In this document: positions 23,823 to 42,239 of the stretch, piece after piece | How the letters are laid out: each line of letters opens with the position of its first letter | How positions within the stretch are numbered: position 1 is the first letter of the stretch | DNA from: an uncultured Neisseria sp. | GTDB lineage: Bacteria; Pseudomonadota; Gammaproteobacteria; Burkholderiales; UBA11063 | Assembly (NCBI GenBank): GCA_964652705.1 | Contig: CAZZAV010000002.1 | Coordinates: forward strand, 47,306-111,305 | DNA length: 64,000 nt | Reading direction: 5' to 3' | Position numbers and translations under genes: made by a program | Notes under the pieces: model-generated | Databases searched by the model: none | The model's input: only the letters and a program-made list of their open reading frames with translations | What the model was told of the DNA's origin: nothing

Positions 23823-24959
23823 ATGAAAATAGCCATAGTTCATGACTGGCTTTACACGTATGCTGGAGCTGAAAAGGTTTTAGAGCAAATTATTCAGTGT
23901 TTTCCAGAAGCAGACTTATTTAGTTTAATCGACTTTATTCCAAATGGTAAGCGTGATTTTATTGCAAATAAAGTTGTGAAAACTTCATTTATTCAGAACT
24001 TGCCATTGGCAAAAACTAAGCATCGCCATTATTTGCCATTGATGCCATTAGCAATTGAACAATTGGATGTAAGTGATTATGATGTGGTTATCAGCAGTTC
24101 ACATGCCGTTGCTAAAGGTGTTTTAACAGGTCCAAATCAATTACATATTTGTTACTGTCATTCACCAATTCGTTATGCTTGGGATATGCAACATCAGTAT
24201 TTACGTGAAGCAGGAATTACGCGAGGTTTTAAATCATGGCTTACACGCTATATTTTACATAAAATTCGGTTGTGGGATTATCGTACAGCTAATGGTGTAG
24301 ATTATTTTGTTGCCAATTCTAATTTTATTGCGCGAAGAATTTTTAAAGTTTATCGCCGTGACGCTAGTGTGATTTACCCAAATGTGGACATTGATAAATT
24401 CACGCTACAAAGTGACAAACAAGATTATTATTTAACCGCATCGCGCTTGGTTCCATATAAAAAAATTGTTTTAATTGCTGAAGCTTTTGCCAAAATGCCA
24501 GATAAACAATTGAAAATTGTTGGTACTGGTCCTGATCAAAAGAAAATTGCAGCTTTGGTGGCAACCGCACCTAATATAGAATATTTGGGATTTGTGGAAG
24601 ATAATGGTCTGGTTAATTTAATGCAAAATGCAAAAGCTTTTGTGTTTGCTGCAGAAGAGGATTTTGGAATTATTCCAGTTGAAGCTCAAGCCTGTGGTAC
24701 ACCAGTCATTGCTTATGGGCGCGGCGGAAGTCTTGAGACTGTAAATGGATTAAACAGTAGTTGCCCAACAGGAGTATTTTTTAATGAACAAAAAATTGAC
24801 AGTATCCTTGCCGCAATATCCCAATTTGAAAATCAGAATGTAATAACTTCTGATAATTGTCGTCAAAATGCGCTACGTTTTTCAGCACCGCGCTTTAGAT
24901 CTGATTTTCAGCAATTTGTGGAGCGTAAATATCAAGAATTTTGTGCGGGTATAAATTAA
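23823..24959 (+). CDS. GT4 glycosyltransferase (WbaZ-like mannosyltransferase)
   Basis: MKIAIVHDWL...GAEKVL, SRLVPYKK and EEDFGIIPVEAQACG. Confidence 0.8.
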   Translation: MKIAIVHDWLYTYAGAEKVLEQIIQCFPEADLFSLIDFIPNGKRDFIANKVVKTSFIQNLPLAKTKHRHYLPLMPLAIEQLDVSDYDVVISSSHAVAKGVLTGPNQLHICYCHSPIRYAWDMQHQYLREAGITRGFKSWLTRYILHKIRLWDYRTANGVDYFVANSNFIARRIFKVYRRDASVIYPNVDIDKFTLQSDKQDYYLTASRLVPYKKIVLIAEAFAKMPDKQLKIVGTGPDQKKIAALVATAPNIEYLGFVEDNGLVNLMQNAKAFVFAAEEDFGIIPVEAQACGTPVIAYGRGGSLETVNGLNSSCPTGVFFNEQKIDSILAAISQFENQNVITSDNCRQNALRFSAPRFRSDFQQFVERKYQEFCAGIN

Positions 24960-26374
24960 TGAAAAAGTTTTTATTACAAAAATGTGCTTTGGTAATGATC
25001 GATTTATTTTCATTGATATTTACTTATTGGCTTAGCATCCAGTTAGCGAATGTCGTTGAGCCAACTAGGGTGCATCGTTTTGATACTGATCACTTGGTAT
25101 TGGTTAAGGCGTTGAATGCGTTGGCAGTTATAGCCTTATTTTGGATTGCGGAGCTGTATGCAAAACGCCGTCCAACTTGGGAAGAGTTACGTATTATTTA
25201 TAAGCAGATTATGTATATTTTGGTGCTTGATTTTGTCGTAATTTCTTTGAGTAGGTCTGAGCATGTAACTTATTTATTTTTCTTTATGTTTTGGGCAATG
25301 CTGTTCATAATTCTACCATTGTTCAGGACATTTGCAATCCGAATTTTGTTACATTATAAATTATGGCAGCGTACTGTGTATATTGTTGGTTGTGGTGAGA
25401 CAGCACTGATGGCATATAATTTGCTTAAAAATCGCCGCTTAATGGGTTATCAGATTGCTGGTTTTGTTAATTTTGACGCGAGTAAAGAAATAACTAATTT
25501 AGAGCTTGATGGTAATTTTGTCCAAGTTTTAAATCTTGAGCAATTATTATCCCGTAGTCGGTATAGTGAAATTGTAGTTGCTTTGGATTCATTAGAGATG
25601 GTTAATAATTTGCAAAAAATTTTTAGTCTACAACGGCATTTTATTTTTGTGAGTTTGGTTCCTGATTTAGAGGGGCTTTCTCTATATGGTATGGAAATTA
25701 CGCATTTTTTTGGTAATGAACAGTTAATGTTGCGCTTGGAGAATAATCTAAATCGGCGCTTAAATAGATTGGTTAAAAAGATATTTGATTATCTAGTAGT
25801 TGTTGCATGTTTACCATTTATTGTGCCAATTATGATACTAATTAGTTTGTTTATTTTCTTAGAAGACAGGGGTAATCCATTTTTTATTCAGCCTCGGATT
25901 GGCAGAAATGGACGAGTGTTTGGTTGCTTTAAATTTCGTAGCATGCATAAAAACGCAGAAAAAATGTTGTTACAGTGGCGAGATGAAAATAATTTAATTT
26001 ATCAAGAGTATGTTGCAAACAATTTTAAATTAGCAAATGATCCGCGAGTAACGAGTATTGGACGGTTTTTACGTAAAACCAGCTTGGATGAGTTGGGGCA
26101 GTTGATCAATGTATTGCGCGGAGAAATGAGCTTAGTTGGTCCGCGTCCGTTGATTGAGCGTGAAATTGTTGATTATAATGATGGATTATTTTATTATAAA
26201 ATGGTGAGCCCTGGTATAACTGGAATGTGGCAAGTTAGTGGACGTAGTAAAACTTCTTTTAGTGATCGTTGCCGTTTGGATAGCTGGTACATCAAAAATT
26301 GGTCTCTTTGGTATGATGTTGTTATCTTGTTGAAAACGTTTGGAGTAGTTTTAAAGCGTGATGGAGCACATTAA
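24959..26374 (+). CDS. wbaP: Undecaprenyl-phosphate hexose-1-P transferase (WbaP-type initiating enzyme)
   Basis: N-terminal TM domain, then [28 protein letters not shown] and [13 protein letters not shown]. Confidence 0.9.
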
Positions 26375-26462
26375 TTGTGGCTTATTTATAAAAATCGTTC
26401 TAGTGATGATTAAATAAGTGTATAATTAAGGTTGAATTTTATTATTTTTTAGGAGTAGTGTC

Positions 26463-26987
26463 ATAAGCACTGAAAAGCAAACCCGTATCAATGGTGCGAT
26501 TAATGTACCCGAGGTTCGTTTAATTATTGATGAAACTAGTGAGCAGCTAGGAGTTGTTAGCATTCGTGAAGCATTGGCTAGGGCTGAAGAACTGCAATTA
26601 GATCTAGTGGAAATTTCTCCCAATGCCAATCCACCTGTATGCAAAATTATGGATTTTGGTAAATTTAAGTACCATGAGCAGAAAAAAGCTCATGCTGCTA
26701 AACAAAATCAAAAGCAGGTGCATGTCAAGGAAATTAAATTTCGCCCCGTGACTGATGATCATGATTATGAGATTAAAATGCGTAACGCAAGGCGTTTTTT
26801 GGAAGATGGCGATAAAGTTAAATTTATTGTACAATTTCGTGGACGTGAGATGGCTCATCAAGAGTTGGGTCTGCGTTACTTATTACGTGCTGAACAAGAT
26901 TTGATTGATTTAGTCGTAGTTGAATCTAAACCAAAAGTCGAAGGTCGTAATGCAATTATGATTGTGGCACCGAAAAAGAAAAAATAA
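26463..26987 (+). CDS. infC: Translation initiation factor IF-3, non-canonical ATA start
   Basis: AGGAG (26451-55) lies 7 nt before ATA at 26463. The continuous frame [21 protein letters not shown]...[11 protein letters not shown] joins the ORF-track protein with KEIKFRP and FRGRE. Confidence 0.95.
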
Positions 26988-26996
26988 GAGAGTAGT

Positions 26997-27869
26997 ATGA
27001 AAGTAAGCGGTTTTACTTTTCTGCGAAATGGAACAATTTTAGGCTATCCCTATGTGGAAAGCCTAAAATCATTATTGGCAGTTTGTGATGAAGTAGTAGT
27101 TGCACTTGGTGATAGTGATGATGACACTTTGGAGCAAGTTAAGGCTATTAATGATCCGCGTCTAAGAGTTATTCAAACTACGTGGAATGAAAATATGCAG
27201 GATCGTGGTTATACTTACGCGCAACAAAAGATGATTGCACAGTTCAATTGTACAGGTGATTGGGCATTTTATCTTGAGGGTGATGAAGTAATTCATGAGC
27301 AAGATTACGCAACGATTCGTGCTGCAATGGAAAAACATCTTGATGATAAGGATGTTGAAGCTCTAGTTTTTGATTACTATCATTTTTACGGTTCACCGAC
27401 TACCTATGCGTATTCTCCGCGTTGGTATCGTCGTGCGCCTCGAATTATTCGTAATAGTGTACGATCTTGGGCACCAGACGGTTTATTTTGGCTGATTATG
27501 AGTGAAAATAAGCGTGGACGTTATCCAAATGCAGCCTTGGTTGGTTGCCATTTGTATCATTATGGTCATGTGCGTTCAGTAGCCAAAATGAATGAAAAAC
27601 ATAAGCGAGTTGCTCATTATTGGGGGCAAAAATTGCCTGAGTTTGAGGGGTATGGCGATATTGACTCACAGAGTATTCTGAATTTTACGCAGACCCACCC
27701 TGCAATTTTAAAGCATTGGCTTGCGAATGATGCAGAGCAGAAGTTTGTTGCTAATATGGATTATCAGCTTTCAAAACGTGACAAAAAACATCGTTTAGTA
27801 AGTAAACTTGAGAAAATTCTTGGCGGTAAAGATTTTACTAAGAAACATTATAAGTTGATTAGAAAATAG
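26997..27869 (+). CDS. GT2-like glycosyltransferase
   Basis: MKVSGFTFLRNG..LGYP, DWAFYLEGDE and HYGHVR. Confidence 0.75.
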   Translation: MKVSGFTFLRNGTILGYPYVESLKSLLAVCDEVVVALGDSDDDTLEQVKAINDPRLRVIQTTWNENMQDRGYTYAQQKMIAQFNCTGDWAFYLEGDEVIHEQDYATIRAAMEKHLDDKDVEALVFDYYHFYGSPTTYAYSPRWYRRAPRIIRNSVRSWAPDGLFWLIMSENKRGRYPNAALVGCHLYHYGHVRSVAKMNEKHKRVAHYWGQKLPEFEGYGDIDSQSILNFTQTHPAILKHWLANDAEQKFVANMDYQLSKRDKKHRLVSKLEKILGGKDFTKKHYKLIRK

Positions 27870-27929
27870 TGTTATTATTAGCTGTATTTGACGCAAGTGG
27901 AGTCAGTTCCTTAAGAAGTAATATTTAAT

Positions 27930-28994
27930 ATGTTTCCTAAACTTAATCAAAGATTTATATTAGATTTTAGCACAAAAATACCTCATCAAATAGAAGAGTT
28001 CCGTCGCAGTGAACCATTCTTCAGTGCATTAAAGCAGACAATTCGTACGTATCGACGTTTTTTTACTTTGTTGTTTTTAAAGCAATTAAACCTTGAGCTA
28101 GATTTAATTCCTGAAAATGCGTCTAAAATACTTTGGCTGAATCCGTCCAGTACCAGTATTGGTGATTCTATTATGGAATTATCGGGGCGTAAGTTGTTAA
28201 ATCATACCAAATTTGAAGTGCATTTGCTAAGTGATCGTAAAAACAGCAGTTTATATTTAGAAGATTTAGTTTTTAGTAAAGTTTTTAATGATCCGTCTCA
28301 AATTGTCGAAACTTACGATTTAATTTTGATGGATGTATATAACACTAAATCGATTAAAATGAAATCTAAATATTTTCCTACTGTGCCATTTTGTGCTCTA
28401 CAGGGGTATTTTTATGGTGCTGATTTTAATCGATTATTATTTAGCTTTCATCGGGTCAATGCACTATTAAATTATCCGTATATTCAGAATGAGGTTGATT
28501 CATTAGCACATAATTATTTATGCATAAATGATTTATCCAAGGAAGATTTTCAAGTGGTAATTGCTGTTGGTGGTGAAGATTATTTACGGACTTACCTGTC
28601 ATGGAATGTGGTTATTGGTGAATTATTAGAGTTAAATCCACATTTGCGAATTTGTTTACTTGGTTCAGAAAATGGTTTAGTTTTTGCTGAAAATATTGTG
28701 GCTGAATTTGGTGATAGAGTTACTAGCCAGGTCGCCAAGTTGAGTCTTCTTGGTACTGCAGGCGTTATCGCCAGAGCTCAAGTTTTTATCGGAGCTGATG
28801 GTGGCTTAATGCATATTGCAACAGCATTTAATTTGAATGGTGTAGCTTTATTTGCAAAGTTTAGACCAGAGCTTCGTTTATCAAAAAATAGTAAAGTTAT
28901 TCCCATATTTTCTTCATCAAATGTTAATCAAATTAAACCATCACAAATTATTGCTGAATTGAAGCAATTAAATTTAGTACGGAGAGATTTATAG
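27930..28994 (+). CDS. GT9 (LPS heptosyltransferase family) protein
   Basis: SIGDSIM and SLLGTAGVIARAQVFIGADGGLMHIATA. Confidence 0.8.
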   Translation: MFPKLNQRFILDFSTKIPHQIEEFRRSEPFFSALKQTIRTYRRFFTLLFLKQLNLELDLIPENASKILWLNPSSTSIGDSIMELSGRKLLNHTKFEVHLLSDRKNSSLYLEDLVFSKVFNDPSQIVETYDLILMDVYNTKSIKMKSKYFPTVPFCALQGYFYGADFNRLLFSFHRVNALLNYPYIQNEVDSLAHNYLCINDLSKEDFQVVIAVGGEDYLRTYLSWNVVIGELLELNPHLRICLLGSENGLVFAENIVAEFGDRVTSQVAKLSLLGTAGVIARAQVFIGADGGLMHIATAFNLNGVALFAKFRPELRLSKNSKVIPIFSSSNVNQIKPSQIIAELKQLNLVRRDL

Positions 28995-28996
28995 TT

Positions 28997-30220
28997 ATGA
29001 ACTCGTGCATCGACAATAAATTAATACCTTTTGCCGCATTATTATTTGGTATTGGGATAGCAACTTCAACTGCTTTGATGTCAGGCAGCTATATTTTATT
29101 AATTGCCTTAGTGTTAATTAGCACTCAAGCTCGTTCTTTAATTGTTGAATCATTTAAAAATAAATTTGTTTTATGTGGTTTTATGTTTTATGTCTTAGTT
29201 TTATTAGGCATGCTTTGGAGTGATGCTGATTTTCATGATCGTAGTAAAATGGCATTGCGGGTAGTTGGTTTTGGATTTTTACCAATTTTTTTTGCTGGGT
29301 TACGAATTAGAAATTCTGCAAAATTATTATTAAAAGCTTTTATTGCTGGGGAAATTCTTAGTGCGGTTATTTCCATCAGTGCATGGGTCTTTAATCACCC
29401 AGTTTTAATGGGTTTGTCTGACGGTGTGACAGAGGGAGCAATTTTTAAATGGGTGGTTTTCCGTGGGCATTTGATTCATGTGGCGTTTTTAGCTATCGCG
29501 GCAAATTTCTTGTTATGGGAGATAATTAATAAATCAAATTCAGATAAAAGAAGATTATTATATGGTTTTTTTTATCTAATTAGTGTTTTTGATTTGATGT
29601 TTTTAGTTCAGGGGCGCACCGGTCAGGTAATGTTCTTAGGAATTACTTTTGTAGTTTTAATTAGTAAATTCAGACTAAAAGGATTACTAAGTTTTATTGT
29701 TATAATAGCCATTGCAGTTCCTGCATTATATAAATTTTCCCCAGCGGTTCGTAATGGCATTTTAGAATACTCCCATGAGCGGGCACAAATGGAGCAGGGT
29801 AATTATAATACAAGTGCTGGTTTAAGAGCACAATTTCATAAAAATAGTTTGATAATGTTTAAGCAAAGTCCATTGATTGGTCATGGTACAGGTAGTTATC
29901 CATCTCACTATAAAGCTTTAGTCGCAGGAACTAATCAGGCGATTAATACTCAGCCACATGGTGATTTATACTTGGTTGCGGTTGAACTTGGAGTTCTTGG
30001 GTTGTTGGCTTTTGTTGCGATGTTGTTGGCAAATGTTTTTGAATTATTTAAAATGAAGAATCGAACCACACAAACTATGGGGTTGGTTTTGTTGACAGGC
30101 TATTTAATTGCTCTAACTCAAAACTCATTTTTCACTGATAATGTAACTGGATTGGCATTTATGCTTTTGATGTTGAGTATTCAAGCAGTTAGCATGAATT
30201 GCTCTAGAACGCTACCATAA
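28997..30220 (+). CDS. waaL: O-antigen ligase family protein
   Basis: About 12 TM segments with GRTG, SAGLR, PLIGHGTGS and PHG.Y....ELG..GL. Confidence 0.8.
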   Translation: MNSCIDNKLIPFAALLFGIGIATSTALMSGSYILLIALVLISTQARSLIVESFKNKFVLCGFMFYVLVLLGMLWSDADFHDRSKMALRVVGFGFLPIFFAGLRIRNSAKLLLKAFIAGEILSAVISISAWVFNHPVLMGLSDGVTEGAIFKWVVFRGHLIHVAFLAIAANFLLWEIINKSNSDKRRLLYGFFYLISVFDLMFLVQGRTGQVMFLGITFVVLISKFRLKGLLSFIVIIAIAVPALYKFSPAVRNGILEYSHERAQMEQGNYNTSAGLRAQFHKNSLIMFKQSPLIGHGTGSYPSHYKALVAGTNQAINTQPHGDLYLVAVELGVLGLLAFVAMLLANVFELFKMKNRTTQTMGLVLLTGYLIALTQNSFFTDNVTGLAFMLLMLSIQAVSMNCSRTLP

Positions 30221-30251
30221 GCAGTTTTATGTTCGGAAGTATATTCTCTTT

Positions 30252-31217
30252 ATGAAAAATAGATTATTTTTTATTGATGTATTGCGTGGAATTGCTGCTT
30301 GTATGGTTATTTTTCAGCATTTGTTTGAGATAAAGTCTGCATGGTTTCATCGCTTTTCTAGTGATTACTTTCAAGCCGGAGTTTTTGGTGTTAGTCTATT
30401 TTTTATAATTAGTGGTTTTGTAATAACTTTATCAATTGAAAAAGCATCATCGTTGGTTGGTTTTTGGATAAAGCGTTTTTTTAGAATTTATCCGCTGTAT
30501 TTATTTTGCTTAGCCTCCGTTGTGTGTCTTGGCCTCAGTAATGGAGAGCATTTTAGTGTCGTAAAGTTGTTACTCAATGTATTGATGGTTAATGAACCAG
30601 CATCAATGCGAATTATTGGTTTATCGTGGACGCTAACTTTTGAAGTGATTTTTTACGTTTTAATTACTGGTTTAGTATTAATAAAATTGCAAGGGAAGTT
30701 ATTGCAGATTAATTGCGGATTAATCATTCTAGCGTTATTGATGGCAATTTTAAAAAATAGTTATGCCGCTGTAGTTTTGATTTATTTTATAAATTTCTTT
30801 GCTGGTGGTATCTGTTATTTATATTATACAAAGCGCTTAAGTCCACAGGTTTTTTATAGTTTTATTGTCTTTTTATTAATTAGCTTTGTCGTAGTTAATT
30901 ATTATGGATTAGCCCATGTAACAGATGCTGCGATTGGTAGTCGAGCATTTCTTCCGCGCACTTCGGCTAATATTTTGGCTTTGATAGTGTTTTGTTTGGC
31001 ATTAAATTTACAAATGAATAAAATAATGCAAAATCGTGTGTTTTTGTATCTGGGTGAGATTAGTTATTCATTGTATTTAATGCAGGCAATAGGTCTTGGT
31101 TTGGCAAGTAATGCATTGGTTGCATTTATCCTAACTTTGATTATTGCAACATTAACTTATTATTTAATTGAAAAACCTTTTATTCGTCTTGGTCATAAAT
31201 TAGCGCATAGTTTTTAA
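30252..31217 (+). CDS. Acyltransferase-3 family O-acyltransferase
   Basis: IDVLRGIAA, GVSLFFIISGF, KRFFRIYP, WTLTFEVIFY and GEISYSLYL. Confidence 0.9.
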   Translation: MKNRLFFIDVLRGIAACMVIFQHLFEIKSAWFHRFSSDYFQAGVFGVSLFFIISGFVITLSIEKASSLVGFWIKRFFRIYPLYLFCLASVVCLGLSNGEHFSVVKLLLNVLMVNEPASMRIIGLSWTLTFEVIFYVLITGLVLIKLQGKLLQINCGLIILALLMAILKNSYAAVVLIYFINFFAGGICYLYYTKRLSPQVFYSFIVFLLISFVVVNYYGLAHVTDAAIGSRAFLPRTSANILALIVFCLALNLQMNKIMQNRVFLYLGEISYSLYLMQAIGLGLASNALVAFILTLIIATLTYYLIEKPFIRLGHKLAHSF

Positions 31218-31260
31218 ATTAATTCGCAAGCACAGATGCTTTATGTTTTTTGGAGATTTT

Positions 31261-32196
31261 ATGCTGGTAAATTCACGCATAGCATTAGTTATTCCTTGTT
31301 ATAACGAAGAAATTACGATTGGTACAGTAATTGATGATGCGAAAAAATATGCACCACAAGCTGAGATTTATGTAATTGATAATAATTCTTCAGATGCTAC
31401 GGCTGAAATTGCTCGAGCACGTGGTGCTAACGTTATTCATGAATATAAAGTTGGTAAAGCATATGCGATTAAAACTGCATTTCGAGTTATTGATGCAGAT
31501 ATTTATGTAATGATTGATGGCGATGATACTTACCCACTTGATCAAATTGACAAAATTATCGAACCAGTTGCCGCTGGTCGTGCGGATATGTCGGTCGGTG
31601 ATCGTCATTCTCTGGGGCATTATAGTGCTGAAAATACCCGTAAATTTCATGGTTTTGGTAATGGCTTAGTAAAAAAGACTATTAATTTGTTTTTTGCTGC
31701 TAAGCTAAATGATATTTTATCTGGTTATCGTGCATTTAGTCGCAGTTTTGTAAAGAATTATCCATTGATTTGTGAGGGATTTGAAATTGAGGCTGATATG
31801 ACGATTCATGCTCTTCATTATGACTATAAAGTGCTAGAAGTTCCAATTACTTTCCAAGAACGCCCGGATGGCTCTGAGTCTAAGTTAAATACCTACAGTG
31901 ATGGAATTAAGATTATGAGTTTAATTGTTGAATTGTATAAAGATAATCGCCCATTAGCGTTCTTTTCAATTTTCTCAGGAATTATCTTTCTTTTTTCATT
32001 GATAAGCGGGGGTGTAGTTATTGATGAGTTTTTAAAAACCCAATACATTACACATGTTCCGTTGGCAATATTGAGTTCTTCGAGCTTTGTTTTAGCGATT
32101 TTGCTTTTTATTAGTGGTTTAATATTAGATACCTTAGTTAAGCAAGATAAGAAAAATCATGCATTACGCTTACTTAGTGACGGTAATGTTCGTTAA
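31261..32196 (+). CDS. gtrB: GtrB/DPM1-like polyprenol-phosphate glycosyltransferase, second copy
   Basis: IPCYNEE, IDNNSSD, IDGDDTY and DILSGYRAF. Strongly similar to 5190-6143. GGAG RBS before ATG 31261. Confidence 0.85.
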   Translation: MLVNSRIALVIPCYNEEITIGTVIDDAKKYAPQAEIYVIDNNSSDATAEIARARGANVIHEYKVGKAYAIKTAFRVIDADIYVMIDGDDTYPLDQIDKIIEPVAAGRADMSVGDRHSLGHYSAENTRKFHGFGNGLVKKTINLFFAAKLNDILSGYRAFSRSFVKNYPLICEGFEIEADMTIHALHYDYKVLEVPITFQERPDGSESKLNTYSDGIKIMSLIVELYKDNRPLAFFSIFSGIIFLFSLISGGVVIDEFLKTQYITHVPLAILSSSSFVLAILLFISGLILDTLVKQDKKNHALRLLSDGNVR

Positions 32197-32587
32197 GTTT
32201 CTGCAATCAAGGTTTTTTAAATTTTTAATCTCCGGTGGTTTAAATACACTAATTTGTCTATTGTTATACTGGATTCTAATTCATAATCAGGTTAATTATA
32301 TTTTTGCAAGTACACTGATGTTTATTTTTGGTGTGATTGAAGGGTATATTCTTAGCGCAATTTTCATTTTTAAACATAAGATAAATTTCTTACATATGGT
32401 GAAGTATACGAGTGTTTATATTAGTTCGTATATTTTAAATATTGCTATTTTAGCGATTGGTGTTGAATTAATTGGACTTAGCCATTTTATGTCGCAGGTG
32501 GTTACTTCGGCATTAGTTGCGGTACTTAATTATTTCTTGGTTAAAATTTTTGTTTTTAAGCAAAAGACAGCAAATGACTTCAAATAA
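32186..32587 (+). CDS. gtrA: GtrA-family translocase, second copy
   Basis: FFKFLISGGLNT and FGVIEGYIL, both shared with 4798-5190. Confidence 0.85.
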   Translation: MFVKFLQSRFFKFLISGGLNTLICLLLYWILIHNQVNYIFASTLMFIFGVIEGYILSAIFIFKHKINFLHMVKYTSVYISSYILNIAILAIGVELIGLSHFMSQVVTSALVAVLNYFLVKIFVFKQKTANDFK

Positions 32588-34682
32588 AATATTTCAATTT
32601 TCATTAATCAAACTCTGGCTTTTATTGAGCATAATTTTAAGCACATTGCTTGTCTCGATTAGCAGTGTTTCAATGCAATTGGAGCGTCTGTCCACCAACC
32701 TACAATCTGGTAATATTAATTACCATTCTAAATCTTTTAATACTGACTCCATTTTTGTTAATTTTGGTTTTAATTTGCCAAATAACGATAAGAATCAATT
32801 GACTACCGACATTGCTTATCCAGAAATTTATGAGATGCGAATTAATCAACTTAAGATTAATACATTGTTTAGCACCAAGCCGTTAATAATTAACTTAAAG
32901 CAAAAGACCCAGTTAATTGAAATACTTAAACTAGATCGCAATTTGACCACTCCTGTTTCTGTGAGCGTCGTTAATAATGACGAATTACCAATTATTGCCG
33001 CTAACCAATTACTACTTGGTGTACTTAAGGTTGTTTTAATTTTTGCTATTTTTGGATTAGTATTGAGTTTATTTAATGGTCTGAGATTTGCTTATTTAAG
33101 ATTTATTCGGTTAGACCCTAAGCTCCTTGAGCTACCTTATAGTAATAAACTTATACTACTTGGTTTAGTCATCGTAAGTGGCTTGTATTCTCTGTGTCGT
33201 GGCCAAGATTTTAATTGGGATTTACAAAATTATCATTTTTACAACCCATATGCTTTTTTAAATAATCGTTTATTATTTGATATTGAACCTGTTGGCGTAC
33301 ATAGTTATTTTAGCCCAATTTTGGATATCTTTAGTTATTTAATTATTCGTAATTTTAATCCAATCTTGAGTGCTTTTACGCTTGGTGCAGCCAGTGGTTT
33401 GTTTGCTTTTGCAGTTTATAAGATTATTCGTCTGATATATACACAAGATATTAAGTTAGCAGCCCTTCGATTAAATAATCCACAATTATACATGGCAAGT
33501 ATTATATTGAGTTTGTTGCTGGCAATTACTGGATTTGCGAATTTAACGCAAATTGGTACGACCATGAATGAAAATTTTGTTGCAATACCAGTTGTTTGGT
33601 CATACTATTATTTGTTGAAATACCAAGATTCAAATACATCAAATTTCCTGTTTTTATCTGGTCTTTTAATTGGAGTCGCATTAGGTTTAAAGTTAACCGC
33701 AATTGTATTTGTGTTATCTTTGGTGATAAGTTTTATTCTTGTTAATCCGCGTAAAGTTTTTCATCATAATGCGGTTGTATTTGGTTTAACCATTATCGCG
33801 GGTTTTTTATTGATCAATGGAATTTGGTTAGTAAAAATGTACCAAGTTTTTGGCAATCCATTTTTTCCAAATTTAGGTAGCTGGTTTAATCCAGATACAG
33901 CTGTGGCATTCGCACCAGATACAACGTTTTTGCCAAAAGATTGGTTACACGGTGTGTTTCTTCCGTTTTACTTATTGTTTCCAAGTCATTTAACCAGTGA
34001 GCAAACAGTTGTTGAGCCACGTTATGCATTGGTATTGCTCTTGTTAGCCTGTGCGGTGTTTAAAACTAAAGATTTTTTTAATAATAAATTATTAAGAGTA
34101 TTACTAATTAATTTGATTGTTGGCTATATTTTATGGGAAATAATCTTTTCAATTCAACGTTATACTGTATCATTAGAAGCATTGTGTGGAATTTTGGGAG
34201 TTGTTTTATTGAATTATTTATTTTATGCAAACGGTAATGCGCATAAAATAATTTTAACTATCAGTATTGTGGTATTGCTAATTTCTAAAGCTGGGAATTT
34301 TAATCACATTGGCTACGCGCATAAGTTTACTGATTTAGGAATTCCAGATACGGAGCTGCCGCATAATGCTTTAGTTATTTATGGTAATTATCCGATGGCA
34401 TATTTATCGGAACCATTAGGATCTAGTAATGTTTATATGAATCGACCTGGCGATAAAGGCTCTAAATTTAATGAAGCACGCAAGCAACAAGCTTTGACAC
34501 AGTTTAGTCGTTCTGGGCGAGATGTGTTTTTAATTGATAAAAACCCAGAAGAAATGCTAGCTGATAACGCTTTATGGTTAGAAGTTTATTCATTAAAAAT
34601 TGGAAAATGCTTAACCTTTAATAACACTCCACGACAAATCATGTGTCGTCTAATTTATACTGATAAATCTAATGTTAAATAA
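32574..34682 (+). CDS. Large polytopic membrane protein, probable GT-C glycosyltransferase with N-terminal extracytoplasmic extension
   Basis: GQDFNWDLQNYHFYNPY acidic loop, GLKLT motif and many TM segments. It follows gtrB-gtrA. Confidence 0.6.
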   Translation: MTSNKIFQFSLIKLWLLLSIILSTLLVSISSVSMQLERLSTNLQSGNINYHSKSFNTDSIFVNFGFNLPNNDKNQLTTDIAYPEIYEMRINQLKINTLFSTKPLIINLKQKTQLIEILKLDRNLTTPVSVSVVNNDELPIIAANQLLLGVLKVVLIFAIFGLVLSLFNGLRFAYLRFIRLDPKLLELPYSNKLILLGLVIVSGLYSLCRGQDFNWDLQNYHFYNPYAFLNNRLLFDIEPVGVHSYFSPILDIFSYLIIRNFNPILSAFTLGAASGLFAFAVYKIIRLIYTQDIKLAALRLNNPQLYMASIILSLLLAITGFANLTQIGTTMNENFVAIPVVWSYYYLLKYQDSNTSNFLFLSGLLIGVALGLKLTAIVFVLSLVISFILVNPRKVFHHNAVVFGLTIIAGFLLINGIWLVKMYQVFGNPFFPNLGSWFNPDTAVAFAPDTTFLPKDWLHGVFLPFYLLFPSHLTSEQTVVEPRYALVLLLLACAVFKTKDFFNNKLLRVLLINLIVGYILWEIIFSIQRYTVSLEALCGILGVVLLNYLFYANGNAHKIILTISIVVLLISKAGNFNHIGYAHKFTDLGIPDTELPHNALVIYGNYPMAYLSEPLGSSNVYMNRPGDKGSKFNEARKQQALTQFSRSGRDVFLIDKNPEEMLADNALWLEVYSLKIGKCLTFNNTPRQIMCRLIYTDKSNVK

Positions 34683-35436
34683 ATTAAGCTTAGTGGTTAT
34701 TACGCATAATGAAGAAATTGCTCTTGAGAGTTGTTTACAATCTTGTGTCGATTTAGTTGATGAAATTATTATTGTGGATAGTGGTAGCACCGATCAGACG
34801 GAATCAATTGCTGAAAAATATAATGCTAAATTTACATATCAAGAGTGGTTGGGTTTTGGACCACAGAAGAATTATGCTGTGAAATTAGCTAAAAATGATT
34901 GGGTGTTATGTCTTGATGCAGATGAATTCTTAACTCCAGAATTAGCGTTGGAAACTCGCAATGAGTTAAATCAGCCACAGGCGAATGCTTACCAGCTGGT
35001 GCGTTGTAATAAATTTCTGGGTAGATATTTACGTAACGGTGCTGGATATCCAGATCGTTCAATTCGCCTATTTAATCGGCAATTTGCCAATTGGTCAAAT
35101 GATTTGGTGCATGAAAAAGTCGAGCTAATCAATAATGGCAAAATTGTTACACTAAAGCACGACTATTTACATAATAGCGGTGAAGATTTTATCAAGTATT
35201 TGCACAAACAAGATCGTTATACGACCACTCAAGCCTTGAGAATGTTTGAATTAAATAAACCAGTTAAACTGCGCAAATTGTTTCTCTCACCATTTGTACA
35301 TTTTATCAAATATTATTTGCTAAAAAGAGGTTTTTTGGATGGGGTAGCCGGGTTTATTCATATTGGAATTGGCTCAATTAATTCATTTCAAAAATATGCT
35401 AAGCTCTATGCCTTGTATCAACAAAGGAAATCATAA
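34672..35436 (+). CDS. GT2 LPS core glycosyltransferase (WaaE/KdtX/LgtF-like)
   Basis: ITHNEE, VDSGSTD, WLGFGPQKN, LDADE and VHEKV. Confidence 0.85.
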   Translation: MLNKLSLVVITHNEEIALESCLQSCVDLVDEIIIVDSGSTDQTESIAEKYNAKFTYQEWLGFGPQKNYAVKLAKNDWVLCLDADEFLTPELALETRNELNQPQANAYQLVRCNKFLGRYLRNGAGYPDRSIRLFNRQFANWSNDLVHEKVELINNGKIVTLKHDYLHNSGEDFIKYLHKQDRYTTTQALRMFELNKPVKLRKLFLSPFVHFIKYYLLKRGFLDGVAGFIHIGIGSINSFQKYAKLYALYQQRKS

Positions 35437-36327
35437 ATGCATTTTGATCATCCAATTATTTATTTTAGGAATCCTGCGCCACGCGAATCCATGTTTTCTA
35501 TTTTAATTCCAAGCTGGAATAATTTGGAGATGCTCAAACTATGTATTGCGAGTATCCAAAAAAATTCAAGTTTCGCCCACCAAATTATTATACATGTTAA
35601 TGATGGGTCAGATGGGACGCTTGAGTGGCTTAAAACTCAAGAATTTAGTTATTCTATTAGTACCGAAAATGTTGGGGTCTGTTATGCTATGAATGCGATG
35701 GCGACCTTGGCAACTACTGATTACTTGCTATATATTAATGATGATATGTATGTTTGTCCTTTGTGGGATAAAATTTTATATGAACAAATTCAAAAAGTAG
35801 GGCACAAATTATTTTATTATTCGGCAACGATGATTGAACCAACTTTTTCACGTAATCAGTGTGCAGTTGCACCACATGATTTTGGGCATTCACCAGGTGA
35901 TTTTAAAGAAGCTGAATTACTGGAATTTGCCACTCAGATTGTTAAAAATGACTGGTATGGTGCGTCATGGCCACCGTCGGTTGTACACCGTGAAACTTGG
36001 GATAAAGTTGGTGGTTTTAGTGTAGAATTCTCCCCTGGTTTTGGGTCTGACCCTGATTTCAGTATGAAGCTTTGGAATCTTGGGGTTAGAGATTTTCGCG
36101 GTTTTGGTAAAAGTTTGGTTTATCATTTTCAATCTAAAAGCACTGGGCGTGTGGTTAAAAATGATGGTCGTCGTGATTTTGCCAAAAAATGGGGGATTAC
36201 CATTCGCTTCTTTTACCGCAAAGTTTTATGCTTTGGCGTAGTTGTTGATGGACGTGAATTGAAATTTACCAAAGGCTTTAATTATTATTTGGCCAGATTT
36301 AAAGCTTGGAAAATTGCGCGTGGCTAA
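35437..36327 (+). CDS. GT2 glycosyltransferase
   Basis: ILIPSWNN, HVNDGSD, YINDDMY and GSDPDF. Confidence 0.8.
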   Translation: MHFDHPIIYFRNPAPRESMFSILIPSWNNLEMLKLCIASIQKNSSFAHQIIIHVNDGSDGTLEWLKTQEFSYSISTENVGVCYAMNAMATLATTDYLLYINDDMYVCPLWDKILYEQIQKVGHKLFYYSATMIEPTFSRNQCAVAPHDFGHSPGDFKEAELLEFATQIVKNDWYGASWPPSVVHRETWDKVGGFSVEFSPGFGSDPDFSMKLWNLGVRDFRGFGKSLVYHFQSKSTGRVVKNDGRRDFAKKWGITIRFFYRKVLCFGVVVDGRELKFTKGFNYYLARFKAWKIARG

Positions 36328-36365
36328 ATATTATAAAGTTAGTTTAAATAGGTAAATTGTTAAAG

Positions 36366-37022
36366 ATGATTCGTCGTTTTATATTTTTATATGTGCTTGG
36401 CATAACAATGTTGTATGCGCAAAATAATATTGAAGGTTTTTATACTGGAGTTGGTACTGGTTTTAATGTGACTTCAAATAGTAATTTAATTAAAACGAAC
36501 GGAGTTGATCAACAAATAAATGGTATTCGTGAGCTAGGCAATCCATCAGGGTATTCATTACCAATTTTAGTTGATGCTGGTTATCGTTTCAACCCCTACC
36601 TTGCCGCTGAGTTTAATTATAGTTATAGTGGTAATCAGCAATATGTTGGACCTGTGGGTGTCTCTGGGGGTAATAATGTATTTTGGGGTTCACAAAATAT
36701 GTTTGGTTTATCTGCAATAGGATATTTACCATTGACGACAGATTTATATTTAAAAGGTCGTTTGGGTTTAGCGTATGCAATGGCGACTATGACCACATAC
36801 ATTGGTGATCCAGGAACTAAAATGATTACTTCTGAATTTGGTGTTGGGTTACAATATTTTATGAGCAAATATTTGTCATTAGATTTTGATTATATTAATT
36901 ATGGATTATTAATGCCGATGCAATTACAGTATAATTCTCCAGGACCAAGCACACCAAATTTAGGTGTAATTGACACAATTAATAATAATCAATTTTTTGT
37001 AAGTTTGACCGTACATTATTGA
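36366..37022 (+). CDS. Outer-membrane beta-barrel protein (OmpA-TM/OMP_b-brl-like)
   Basis: Signal peptide, GYRFNPYLAAEFNY, LPLTTDLYLKGRLGLAY and a C-terminal aromatic residue (SLTVHY). No periplasmic OmpA-C domain. Confidence 0.75.
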   Translation: MIRRFIFLYVLGITMLYAQNNIEGFYTGVGTGFNVTSNSNLIKTNGVDQQINGIRELGNPSGYSLPILVDAGYRFNPYLAAEFNYSYSGNQQYVGPVGVSGGNNVFWGSQNMFGLSAIGYLPLTTDLYLKGRLGLAYAMATMTTYIGDPGTKMITSEFGVGLQYFMSKYLSLDFDYINYGLLMPMQLQYNSPGPSTPNLGVIDTINNNQFFVSLTVHY

Positions 37023-37074
37023 ATTTGTCAGTCTGGGGTTGTTGCTAAAATATTCTCAGTTGTTGATTTAATTA

Positions 37075-37083
37075 TGATATAAT
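37075..37083 (+). promoter_or_regulatory. Extended -10 promoter TGaTATAAT upstream of rpmI
   Basis: Perfect TGnTATAAT about 100 nt upstream of the rpmI start. Confidence 0.6.
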
Positions 37084-37180
37084 CTATCCCTCAAAATGGT
37101 GGGTAGTTAGGTTCCTCAAGTTCTCGTTTATCGAGCACCTTCTATCTGAATTACAACTGCGATTAATACAAGGTTCAAAC

Positions 37181-37378
37181 ATGCCTAAAATGAAATCAAA
37201 GTCTGGTGCTAAAAAACGCTTTATCGTTCAAGGTAGCGGCGGCATCAAACGTTCTAAAGCATTCAAACGTCATATATTGACTAAGAAAACAACTAAAAAC
37301 AAACGTCAATTACGTGGTACAGTACAAATTCACCCTAGCGATATGGGTCATGTACGTAGCATGTTGCCTTACGCATAA
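37181..37378 (+). CDS. rpmI: 50S ribosomal protein L35
   Basis: [14 protein letters not shown]...[10 protein letters not shown]. Confidence 0.98.
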
Positions 37379-37394
37379 ATTAGGGAGTTAAAGA

Positions 37395-37751
37395 ATGCCT
37401 AGAGTAAAACGTGGTGTCGTAGCACGTGCACGTCACAAAAAAATTATCGCTTTAGCTAAAGGCTATCGCGGTCGTCGCAACAACGTATTCCGTGTTGCTA
37501 AAGAAGCGGTGATGAAAGCTGGTCAATATGCTTACCGTGATCGTCGTCAAAGAAAACGTCAATTCCGTAGTCTATGGATTGCGCGGATTAATGCTGGTTG
37601 CCGTGAATTAGGTTTGACTTATAGCCGTTTTATTAACGGTCTATTAAAAGCTGAAGTTGCTGTTGATCGTAAAGTATTGTCTGATTTGGCAATTACTGAT
37701 AAATTAGCATTCGCTAAATTTGTTGAGCTTGCTAAAAGCAAATTAGCGTAA
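37395..37751 (+). CDS. rplT: 50S ribosomal protein L20
   Basis: [15 protein letters not shown]...KGYRG...[22 protein letters not shown]. Confidence 0.99.
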
Positions 37752-37773
37752 TAAAGCCAGTTGCTTTATAATA

Positions 37774-37805
37774 ATGGGGGCTAGAGAATAGTCCTCATTT
37801 TTTTT
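37774..37805 (+). terminator. Intrinsic terminator after rplT
   Basis: Stem ATGGGGGCTA / TAGTCCTCAT (two G-U pairs), loop GAGAA, then a T run. Confidence 0.8.
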
Positions 37806-37816
37806 GCGTGGATTTT

Positions 37817-38500
37817 ATGAATAAAACCTCTATTGGTGATAAAGAATTACAGCAACGGGTAGTGCATTCGTTAGAAAAAGTTTGGGATTTAACCGATGAT
37901 TTAGTTGAGTTTTATCCATCTTATGATAATTATAGTGTTACGGTATTTGGATCTGCTAGGATTAGTGAGAATTCAAGTGCCTATCAAGATGTGATGGAGT
38001 TTGCCAAAAATCTTGCTCGCCTAGAGTGTAATGTAATTAGTGGTGGTGGACCAGGGGTTATGGAAGCTGCTAATCGCGGTGCAATGTCTGGTAAATTGAC
38101 GGATTCACCGATTAAATCTGTAGGGATTAATATTGAGTTGCCATTTGAGCAACGAAACAATCAATATTTAGATGAGTGCTTCCCGCATAAAACTTTTTTT
38201 ACACGGTTACAGCATTTTACGGCAGTTAGTGATTGTTTTGTGGCTTTTTATGGCGGAATTGGCACGGTACTAGAAATTTTAACGGTATTACAATTGATGC
38301 AGGTCAAGCAAATCTCGGATCGCAAATTAATTTTGGTGGGTAGTATGTGGCCTGGTCTAATTAAATGGTTTGAAGCCGAAATGTTAAATGAAGACATGCA
38401 GCTTATTCATAGTGGTGATTTATTAATTCCACATTTGGTGCCTCATTATCAGGATGCTTTAGAAATAATTAAGCAACATAAAATGCAGCTGGATTTATAA
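37817..38500 (+). CDS. LOG-family (Lonely Guy/TIGR00730-type) nucleotide phosphoribohydrolase
   Basis: VTVFGSAR, SGGGPGVMEAANRGA, GINIELPFEQ, FFTR and YGGIGTVLE. Confidence 0.85.
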   Translation: MNKTSIGDKELQQRVVHSLEKVWDLTDDLVEFYPSYDNYSVTVFGSARISENSSAYQDVMEFAKNLARLECNVISGGGPGVMEAANRGAMSGKLTDSPIKSVGINIELPFEQRNNQYLDECFPHKTFFTRLQHFTAVSDCFVAFYGGIGTVLEILTVLQLMQVKQISDRKLILVGSMWPGLIKWFEAEMLNEDMQLIHSGDLLIPHLVPHYQDALEIIKQHKMQLDL

Positions 38501-38515
38501 ACGATTAATTTAAAA

Positions 38516-39529
38516 TTGAAAGAATTAGAGATGGTGGAACAACTTACTCAAGTTTTGGTAACTGCGCTTAGTGAAATGCAAGCAGTTGCTTCTATTCATG
38601 AATTGGAGCAATTCAAGTCGCGTTATGTTGGTAAACAGGGTTTAATTACCGCGTTCATGCAAAAATTAAAAGATTTAGCGCCAGATGAGCGTAAAGCTTT
38701 TGGTGCGCAAGTAAATCAGGTTAAAACTGAATTTGAAGTAGCTTTAAATGAACAGCGTGCTGGGATTATTGCACACGAATTAAATAATAAGTTAGCCACT
38801 GAGACTATTGATGTTACTTTGCCTGGTCGTGGAATTGCAGCTGGAAGTTTGCACCCTGTCACGCTTGCATTAAATCGGATCGTAAAGATTTTTGCTCAAT
38901 TGGGTTTTGCGGTATCAGATGGTCCAGAAATTGAAAATGATTATTATAATTTTAAAGCCTTAAATATTCCTGATAATCATCCAGCTCGTGCGATGCAAGA
39001 TACTTTCTATACTGAAGCTGGTAATGTTTTACGTACGCACACTTCGCCAATTCAGGTTCGTTATGCTGAGACACGTACTCCGCCGATTAAAATTGTAGCA
39101 CCTGGACGTGTCTATCGTGTGGACATGGATGCAACTCATTCTCCTATGTTTCATCAAATGGAATTATTGTGGATTGAAGAAGGAATTAGTTTTGCCAATT
39201 TAAAAGCAATTATCATTGAATTTATGCGTAAATTTTTTGAAGATGATAGCTTGCAAGTACGTTTTAGAGCATCATTTTTCCCATTTACGGAACCTTCAGC
39301 AGAGATTGACATTTTCTTTAGCAAGACTGGTAAATGGCTAGAAGTTGGTGGCTGTGGGATGGTTCATCCAAGAGTGCTTAATTATATGAATATTTCAAGT
39401 CATGAATATACCGGCTTTGCGTTTGGTTTTGGGATTGATCGTTTAGCTATGCTTAAATACGGTATAACTGATTTACGTTTAATGTTCGATAATGATTTAG
39501 ATTTCTTGGCGCAGTTTAAGGGTTTATAA
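38516..39529 (+). CDS. pheS: Phenylalanyl-tRNA synthetase alpha subunit
   Basis: HPARAMQDTFY, LRTHTSPIQ, FRASFFPFTEPSAE and GFAFGFGIDRLAML. Confidence 0.98.
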   Translation: MKELEMVEQLTQVLVTALSEMQAVASIHELEQFKSRYVGKQGLITAFMQKLKDLAPDERKAFGAQVNQVKTEFEVALNEQRAGIIAHELNNKLATETIDVTLPGRGIAAGSLHPVTLALNRIVKIFAQLGFAVSDGPEIENDYYNFKALNIPDNHPARAMQDTFYTEAGNVLRTHTSPIQVRYAETRTPPIKIVAPGRVYRVDMDATHSPMFHQMELLWIEEGISFANLKAIIIEFMRKFFEDDSLQVRFRASFFPFTEPSAEIDIFFSKTGKWLEVGGCGMVHPRVLNYMNISSHEYTGFAFGFGIDRLAMLKYGITDLRLMFDNDLDFLAQFKGL

Positions 39530-39530
39530 G

Positions 39531-41903: not shown

Positions 41904-41939
41904 TTTTAAATTTTAATTATTTATTTTTCTGAGGAAAAT

Positions 41940-42239
41940 ATGACAAGTACAGTAACAAAAAATGATTTAATTCAGGTGGTTATGTCTAATTCTGAGTTAA
42001 CGCGTGTTGAGTCATACCGTTTGGTAGAAGACTTCTTTGATGTAATGAGTAAGAGTTTAGAGGATGGGTCAGAGGTTAAAGTTTCTGGTTTTGGTAATTT
42101 CGTATTACGTGACAAAAGCCCACGTGTTGGTCGTAACCCAAAAACTAAAGAAGAGTTTCCAATTAATGCGCGTCGTGTAGTATCTTTTCATACTAGTAAC
42201 TTATTGAAAGAGCAGATAAAAGGATTTAAACCAGAGTAG
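41940..42239 (+). CDS. ihfA: Integration host factor alpha subunit
   Basis: VKVSGFGNF..RDK..R.GRNPKT, directly after pheT. Confidence 0.93.
   Translation: MTSTVTKNDLIQVVMSNSELTRVESYRLVEDFFDVMSKSLEDGSEVKVSGFGNFVLRDKSPRVGRNPKTKEEFPINARRVVSFHTSNLLKEQIKGFKPE

Follow-up and report, generated by a model that had tools for sequence, protein, structure and literature searches.

In the 64,000-nucleotide (nt) stretch of contig CAZZAV010000002.1 that was analysed here (the window), infC, the gene for translation initiation factor IF3, is separated from the ribosomal protein genes rpmI and rplT by 10,193 nt filled with ten envelope genes of the lipopolysaccharide (LPS) core, ligase and modification kind. 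Our results show that this arrangement of infC and LPS genes is almost certainly real and ancestral to the genus of the host, an uncultured betaproteobacterium of the order Burkholderiales (GTDB sense) with a low GC content (34.8%). Its genome is 99.9% complete in a draft of 99 contigs, and its family is monogeneric among the genomes in the collection used. The comparison covered 23 congeners with readable sequence 3' of infC, including the closed, one-contig 2.82-Mb genome G041, and the open reading frames (ORFs) of the congener regions were labelled by their similarity to proteins of the window. Genomes are given by G numbers, G000 being this one; C2 is the contig that carries the window, with infC at C2:73777. 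All features of the window described below lie on the + strand, and coordinates are window positions unless a contig or locus is named.

An interrupted infC-rpmI junction across the genus

infC (26463-26987; 174 aa) was recognized by TIGR00168 with 248 bits, for a cut-off of 60, and by the two domains of its product, IF3_N and IF3_C. Its reading frame is open from 26436, the start codon is ATA at 26463, with an AGGAG ribosome-binding site (26451-26455) 7 nt before it, and the TAA stop ends at 26987. The non-AUG isoleucine start of the canonical operon is therefore found here, as ATA, and in all 14 congeners checked infC begins with ATA or ATT and is preceded by GGAG. A search for a second infC beside thrS, suggested in the earlier note on this DNA, gave a single copy in the genome; the gene right behind thrS encodes an OmpA-family protein and not another infC.

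The ten genes between infC and rpmI occupy 26997-37022. From infC on, the distances from one gene to the next are 9, 60, 2, 31, 25, -38, -71, -11, 0 and 29 nt, so that every intergenic gap within the unit is 60 nt or less, and a further 158 nt lead to rpmI. The earlier note had claimed that the thrS-infC-rpmI-rplT operon is broken and that infC heads a 10-kb LPS unit in which no terminator was seen. Both claims are confirmed: the string is interrupted on either side of infC, and infC is followed by ten densely packed envelope genes on its own strand, the first of them 9 nt past its stop, with no convincing terminator ahead of the strong one 3' of rplT.

The canonical placement of rpmI-rplT directly after infC is found neither here nor across the genus, as rpmI adjoins infC in none of the 23 congeners. 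In the nine genomes of the genus in which infC and rplT share a contig (eight congeners and this one) the two genes are 4.7-13.5 kb apart, and the insert from infC to rpmI measures 4.5-14 kb where the contig is shared (12 genomes). The closed genome G041 has the order thrS, 29.7 kb, a WbaP-like gene, infC, the same first insert gene as here (g1, described below), 14 more genes, rpmI, rplT, a LOG-family gene, pheS, pheT and ihfA, with 14 kb in all between infC and rpmI. In 14 of the 15 other families of the order infC and rplT lie only ~300-400 bp apart, and adjacency of infC and rpmI, with spacers of 98-354 nt, was found at 43 beta- and gammaproteobacterial loci. At ~30 alphaproteobacterial loci, mostly of Rhodobacterales, infC has neither rpmI nor rplT within 10 kb. 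The statement that infC-rpmI-rplT is among the most conserved bacterial gene orders thus holds for the 14 sister families and the 43 loci, but has to be limited in view of the alphaproteobacterial exceptions. A published survey places infC among ten 'weak operon' genes, yet recovers an infC-rpmI-rplT cluster (PMC2837039). The exceptional family of the order is that of G036, in which infC and rplT are 246 kb apart on opposite strands (C4:449910 and 696430).

A chimeric contig, in which infC and a glycan locus from elsewhere were wrongly put together, is an explanation that can practically be dismissed. The draft state of the assembly, with its 99 contigs, would allow for it, but the gene for a WbaP-like transferase lies directly 5' of infC in G011, G013, G019, G024, G041 and G042 as well, the infC/g1 junction is present in 18 genomes and the junction between the insert and the rpmI leader in 12; the genomes compared include the single-contig one of 2.82 Mb, and the genome studied here holds one infC and one rplT. 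Synteny, which the earlier note had named among its checks, shows the layout, as far as comparison reaches, to be no artefact, since it recurs in the 23 congeners, the one-contig genome included. The finding is a real, old and lineage-wide change of gene order, of kinds that are known: operons are rearranged, and glycan loci lie between flanks of housekeeping genes.

Content, age and turnover of the insert

The first insert gene, g1 (26997-27869; 290 aa), begins 9 nt past the infC stop and encodes a GT2-like glycosyltransferase (GT) with weak Pfam matches, namely Glycos_transf_2 (26.8 bits, cut-off 23.3; E = 5.8e-6) and Glyco_tranf_2_4 (26.7 bits, slightly under the cut-off of 27.5); nothing informative was matched in a PDB sequence search with g1. 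The protein is a member of a widespread, well-conserved family. It is followed by a GT9-family, heptosyltransferase-like transferase (27930-28994; Pfam Glyco_transf_9, E = 7.7e-11), for which every NCBIfam heptosyltransferase match was far under its cut-off, and by a polytopic Wzy_C protein of 407 aa (28997-30220; Pfam Wzy_C, E = 1e-15). The latter is probably the O-antigen ligase WaaL; the Wzy_C domain alone cannot distinguish a ligase from a polymerase. Next comes a membrane acyltransferase (30252-31217; Pfam Acyl_transf_3, E = 2.9e-24), probably a glycan O-acetyltransferase.

The following three genes form a Gtr-like trio (31243-34682). A GT2 of the polyprenyl-phosphate-hexose type (31243-32196) matches TIGR04182 with 246.7 bits, under the cut-off of 325, its matches to AglJ/dolichyl-phosphate-hexose models being under their cut-offs; a GtrA-family protein (32159-32587) matches GtrA_DPMS_TM with E = 6.5e-16; and a polytopic, GT-C-like protein of 721 aa (32517-34682) matches PMT_2 with E = 2e-4, under the cut-off. 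Of a possible Gtr-type three-component system, the GtrA domain is clear and the GT2 and 721-aa partners match only under cut-offs; the trio is kept in G002 at 68-86% identity. Two further GT2 glycosyltransferases (34672-35436 and 35437-36327; Pfam Glycos_transf_2, E = 2.6e-22 and 3.2e-14) precede the last insert gene, which encodes a small outer-membrane beta-barrel protein (36357-37022; OMP_b-brl, E = 7.2e-10; OmpA_membrane, E = 1.9e-7) and was not found in the insert of G002. With a Wzy_C ligase-type gene and, beside it, one GT9 and four GT2 or GT2-like genes, the run has the composition of a waa-type locus.

In the relatives the insert nearly always consists of an O-antigen-ligase gene and a varying set of glycosyltransferases. 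In 18 of the 23 congeners the insert begins with g1 (65-90% identical), and in most of these a Wzy_C gene comes next or one gene later. Wzy_C genes occur in most congener inserts, detected by Pfam in G010 and G022 and by similarity to the ligase of the window in nine others, and g1 and the ligase gene are the only insert genes that recur. In G004 and G008 the ligase gene stands directly after infC, without g1 there. The insert of G022, again without g1 after infC, holds DUF2079, GT25, Wzy_C, two GT9, a GT2 and PMT_2, that of G050 a related but different set, also without g1 after infC, and that of G010 Wzy_C, two GT2 and two PMT_2 genes; in the others, homologues of g1, of the ligase and of the GT9 gene were identified. 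G007 has RPE65 and GH18 genes, and G022 has DUF924, as passengers of an unrelated kind, and in G009 (L098:3925-16695) two giant ORFs of 1871 and 2167 aa stand behind infC-g1 instead of a ligase locus.

Even the nearest relative, G002, whose IF3 is 98% identical, differs in content. Its g1 and its five last glycan genes are 68-90% identical to those of the window, and its middle segment consists of a GT9 gene that is 46% identical and two genes that do not match the ligase and acyltransferase of the window; going by these comparisons, the GT9-ligase-acyltransferase segment is either replaced or strongly diverged. G005 has no glycan genes after infC and a clean intrinsic terminator instead, with rplT on another contig. 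This terminator (L097:2616-2660; AAAGCGCC-uuua-GGCGCUUUUAUU, z = -3.7) lies directly behind infC and makes G005 a natural 'uncoupled' control.

The earlier note had also inferred that the position next to an essential gene may protect the glycan genes from deletion. This is contradicted by insert contents that differ from species to species over 4.5-14 kb and by G005, which has none of these genes. A better frame than protection is that of a variable surface-glycan cassette between housekeeping flanks, which occurs twice in one string of translation genes.

Variation of the content by species is also what a recently acquired mobile genomic island would lead one to expect, but such an origin is very improbable here. 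The GC content of the insert is 0.336, compared with 0.348 for the genome, and the GC content at third codon positions (GC3) agrees with that of the housekeeping genes. No tRNA gene was detected in the window, no direct or inverted repeats were found to flank the insert, and none of its ten genes has an integrase, transposase or recombinase domain, so the recombinase, tRNA or att repeats and deviant composition by which mobile islands are recognized were all missing. Moreover, no genus member examined (n = 23) has rpmI directly after infC. Judged by composition and distribution, the insert is old and not a mobile island.

In Chitinibacter and Andreprevotia, a g1 homologue (~67% identical) and a Wzy_C gene next to it form a pair away from infC, the pair of Chitinibacter being near msbA-like and lpxC genes. 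The occurrence of the g1-Wzy_C pair apart from infC in these genera indicates that a pre-existing LPS module docked behind infC in the present lineage.

A second glycan cluster between thrS and infC

thrS does not lie directly upstream of infC in this genome, where a WbaP-like gene adjoins infC in its place, and the earlier note had called it absent upstream. This needs correction, for thrS shares the contig and the strand of infC and stands 54.6 kb further upstream (C2:17523-19184). The gap between the two genes (C2:19202-73767, which is window positions 1-26374 plus 28 kb further upstream) holds ~50 co-directional genes. Most of the 46 that were scanned are glycan genes, among them seven GT2, six GT1 and five dehydratases or epimerases of nucleoside diphosphate (NDP) sugars, as well as aminotransferases, a uridine diphosphate (UDP)-galactopyranose mutase and the WbaP-like initiating sugar-phosphate transferase (24941-26374; Pfam Bac_transf, E = 1.1e-62), whose gene is the last of this 54-kb thrS-to-infC cluster. 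The run is very long and keeps to one strand, with only nine intergenic gaps of more than 70 nt.

The state of this second junction divides the genus. thrS adjoins infC in G003, G004, G006, G007, G008, G009, G015, G020, G022, G043, G045, G046, G047 and G050, and one additional ORF separates the two in G017. Glycan genes lie upstream of infC in G000, G011, G013, G019, G024, G041, G042 and G049, and the distance from thrS to infC, where the contig is shared, is 21.6 kb in G010, 28.9 kb in G011, 29.7 kb in G041 and 54.6 kb in G000. The congeners with adjacent thrS and infC are the more distant ones, with PheS 60-70% identical to that of the window in the five compared, and those with upstream glycan genes are closer, with PheS 77-91% identical in those compared.

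Since thrS-infC is intact in the distant congeners and filled with glycan genes in the closer ones, the simplest history is that the infC-rpmI insertion came first and the thrS-infC insertion second. With all its parts weighed together, including those on expression that are discussed below, we consider the following account likely to be the best explanation. As the comparison shows, an outer-core and O-antigen-ligase locus, made up of a g1-like gene, waaL and more glycosyltransferase genes, became lodged behind infC in the ancestor of the genus, probably between the infC stop and the promoter and leader of rpmI. The locus has remained since then as a site of changing cassettes whose housekeeping flanks are conserved. 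In one sub-branch, to which this genome belongs, the space between thrS and infC was filled later by another, larger cluster of 22-55 kb for O-antigen or exopolysaccharide, which ends in wbaP.

A predicted promoter and structured leader of rpmI-rplT

rpmI (37181-37378), recognized by its translation and by tblastn matches in relatives, and rplT (37395-37751; TIGR01032, E = 2e-47), which is present in a single copy, are spaced by 16 nt. Upstream of them, an extended -10 promoter, TGATATAAT, is predicted from the letters at 37075-37083, and a TGnTA(T/A)AAT box stands ~100-140 nt 5' of rpmI in all 12 congeners examined. Behind it lies a structured rpmI leader (37098-37152), a candidate L20 operator with a variable hairpin framed by two stems, GGUAG/CUAUC and AGGU/ACCU. 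In nine sequences, 90% of the cells of the alignment conform to this pairing, compared with 32-54% in slid controls, and covariation is modest. RNAalifold on raw MAFFT alignments recovered no more than a stem of 4 bp or the hairpin at the centre, and the longer structure was supplied by hand. A covariance model of the genus leader, R1, scores 77.8 bits on the window and 31.6 and 23.3 bits on the held-out sequences of G007 and G009. Rfam gave no match at E <= 1 in 24000-39000, and at the gathering threshold only tRNAs in five canonical relatives.

Betaproteobacteria with the canonical gene order have a similar stem inside the 100-350-nt spacer between infC and rpmI. In these genomes (loci L011-L082) the leader is 57 nt long and ends ~10-20 nt before rpmI, for example at L013:10590-10656, and the pattern AAGUGGU..CAGGU-AAG-hairpin-CACCUG..CAU is seen in Thauera, Aromatoleum and other Rhodocyclaceae, in Gallionella/Sideroxydans and in Polynucleobacter. 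Covariation is strong in this canonical type, with compensatory changes in 12 of 16 pairs and values that none of 500 shuffles reached, and the corresponding model, R2, recovers held-out examples. It may represent an undescribed L20-type ribosomal-protein leader. By eye, the genus leader resembles it (AGGUUc..AAG-hairpin-CACCU), and homology of the two types is not significant by either model: R1 found none of the canonical leaders, its sole match outside the genus being at chance level and elsewhere in L022. The best match of R2 in the window is inside the rplT coding sequence (37500-37550; 11.6 bits, E = 0.033 in 2 kb) and probably due to chance.

As far as sequence can tell, rpmI-rplT is not orphaned by the insertion, having its own conserved promoter and leader. 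With these, its expression would be independent of read-through from the glycan genes, and the leader, as a putative operator, probably still allows L20 to repress its own synthesis. The point of insertion was likely the stretch from the infC stop to an ancestral rpmI leader.

Probable transcription and translation across the infC-g1 junction

The promoter of infC may be close to the gene. A TATAAT box, read from the sequence as a candidate, lies at 26421-26426, ~36 nt 5' of the infC start, and occurs at an equal distance from infC in all congeners with glycan genes upstream of infC. The mRNA of infC and at least g1 probably starts at this box or further upstream. At the other end of infC, the g1 start is usually 0-10 nt past the infC stop, up to ~90 nt in two genomes, and stop/start patterns such as TAAtaATG and TAGcATG occur in congeners. 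Some congeners have C-terminal extensions of IF3 (202 aa in G020 and 186 aa in G009, compared with 174 aa here), and the extended infC of G020 overlaps the g1 start as TAATG. Abutting stop and start codons probably couple the translation of g1 to that of infC.

A terminator scan gave 11 terminator-like sites, for 9.6 expected, and the only strong one was at 37773-37799, 3' of rplT. The infC/g1 junction has no stable hairpin and folds no better than shuffled sequence (z = +1.2). Without an intervening terminator, transcription may continue through the ten genes into rpmI-rplT and end after rplT. On these grounds a common transcript of infC and g1 is fairly probable, and chances are about even that one transcript covers the whole 10-kb run.

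Several observations weigh against this reading. g1 or later genes may have internal promoters, and a scan for consensus promoters, which gave 65 sites for 65.3 expected, is uninformative in such AT-rich DNA. G004, G008, G022 and G050 lack g1 after infC and infC of G005 ends in a terminator, which implies that linkage of the glycan genes to infC is dispensable. A test of synonymous sites speaks for the shared transcript, as conservation is not raised towards the 3' end of infC and gives no sign of an embedded promoter, but the test is a weak one, made on 13 sequences of biased composition. As to the leader, R2 gave only a local and non-significant match on that of the window (3.4 bits, E = 3.8). 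For a promoter hidden in the 3' end of infC, the synonymous-site test gave no signal: the sole stretch of raised conservation encodes a lysine-rich linker and is probably an effect of composition.

Neutral co-location, in which the infC mRNA would end or be processed at the stop codon, the glycan genes would have one or more promoters of their own within or behind infC and their position would be a historical accident of no regulatory significance, is a less favoured explanation, which we hold to be unlikely. The stand-alone infC of G005 with its own terminator, the five of 23 congeners without g1 after infC and the abundance of promoter-like sites in AT-rich DNA speak for it. Against it stand the distance between infC and g1, which is 0-10 nt or an overlap in most of the 18 carriers of g1, the lack of a hairpin at their junction and an infC 3' end free of extra synonymous-site conservation.

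At the other extreme, selection might keep g1 behind infC because LPS core and ligase output would thereby, by way of a common mRNA and coupled translation, be tied to the autoregulation of IF3 and to growth rate. IF3 feedback in E. coli targets the non-AUG (AUU-class) start codon of infC. The conservation of this start in the genus, and of the infC/g1 junction over the depth of the genus while the genes past g1 and the ligase change, would agree with such regulatory coupling. However, the junction was lost in at least four lineages that retained the ligase locus (G004, G008, G022 and G050) and wholly in G005, and the g1-ligase pair works apart from infC in Chitinibacter and Andreprevotia, so that we find selected coupling improbable.

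The account preferred here, an old insertion that may share its first transcript with infC, nevertheless leaves room for a bolder extension. As most members of the genus have g1 adjoining the infC stop or overlapping it, and the ATA or ATT start is kept, ribosomes that end infC may initiate g1. It could be speculated, at long odds, that IF3 autoregulation is passed on in this manner to LPS assembly, with ribosomes finishing infC as the main source of g1 initiation, and more broadly that the junctions of thrS-infC-rpmI-rplT-pheST are favoured long-lived slots for glycan genes, offering constitutive, growth-linked transcription and flanks for exchange. If this were true, the supply of core and ligase enzymes would track the capacity for translation initiation.

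Comparison with known systems

The genes, order and strand of the region are like those of thrS-infC-rpmI-rplT-pheMST-ihfA in E. coli (PMC3616713), and so are the non-AUG isoleucine start of infC (ATA here), a structured rpmI leader, the 16 nt between rpmI and rplT and a terminator after rplT. Unlike in E. coli, 54.6 kb of glycan genes split thrS from infC here and 10.2 kb split infC from rpmI. Regulation in E. coli involves IF3 feedback on the AUU start and an L20 operator at the infC/rpmI junction (PMC3616713 and references therein). The long-range L20 pseudoknot of E. coli uses infC coding sequence and is impossible in that form here, where the leader forms a compact stem, ~55 nt long, downstream of a promoter of its own.

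The Firmicutes L20 leader (RF00558) and the E. coli L20 operator are likewise conserved structured RNAs before the L35 and L20 genes. The Bacillus leader, however, precedes infC, whereas the leader described here stands directly before rpmI, behind its own promoter, and has no Rfam match at E <= 1. The stand-alone infC of Rhodobacterales is also apart from rpmI-rplT, but there thrS, rpmI and rplT are not within 10 kb (thrS is, in 2 of ~30 loci), whereas here order and strand are kept and the junctions expanded.

As to the insert itself, enterobacterial waa (rfa) clusters and the g1-waaL module of Chitinibacter and Andreprevotia likewise hold Wzy_C, GT9, GT2 and acyltransferase genes, packed on one strand, and share with it a hypervariable outer and a conserved inner part. 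The difference is that infC heads the locus here, in place of a long leader of its own, and that no ops/JUMPStart element (GGCGGTAG or GG[CT]GGTAG) was found in C2:15000-90000. The O-antigen locus of E. coli sits between galF and gnd, and it resembles the present case as a variable cassette of mosaic content between conserved flanks that are possible anchors for homologous recombination. In contrast, the genes that flank the insert here are essential for translation and make up a single operon elsewhere, and two loci are nested in one string.

An operon that is usually treated as fixed has thus been opened at two junctions and has stayed open through the radiation of a genus, which amounts to a natural experiment. 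The feedback parts that were retained, namely the non-AUG infC start and the promoter and leader of rpmI, show which parts of the IF3/L35/L20 circuit need physical linkage and which can do without it. The arrangement is also a practical marker, for in these uncultured betaproteobacteria the interval from infC to rpmI is the place to look for the LPS ligase and outer-core locus and, in one sub-branch, that from thrS to infC for the O-antigen locus. Should the glycan genes be on one mRNA with infC and their translation be coupled to it, the output of outer-membrane glycan would be tied to translation capacity, of which no description was found in the literature searched; searches for infC with waaL, or for thrS, infC and O-antigen, returned nothing relevant.

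Downstream genes

rplT is followed by an intrinsic terminator (37773-37807), with an 11-bp stem and a T8 run (-18 kcal/mol, z = -2.4). Beyond it, a gene of the LOG/Lysine_decarbox family, pheS, pheT and ihfA fill 37808-42239, as identified by Pfam and by their translations, in an order that is kept in congeners. The LOG-family gene (37808-38500) occupies the place between rplT and pheS and replaces pheM, which precedes pheS in E. coli. It is also found between rplT and pheS in G002, G011, G013, G020, G024, G041 and G042, and is absent from that place in G007, G008, G009 and G022.

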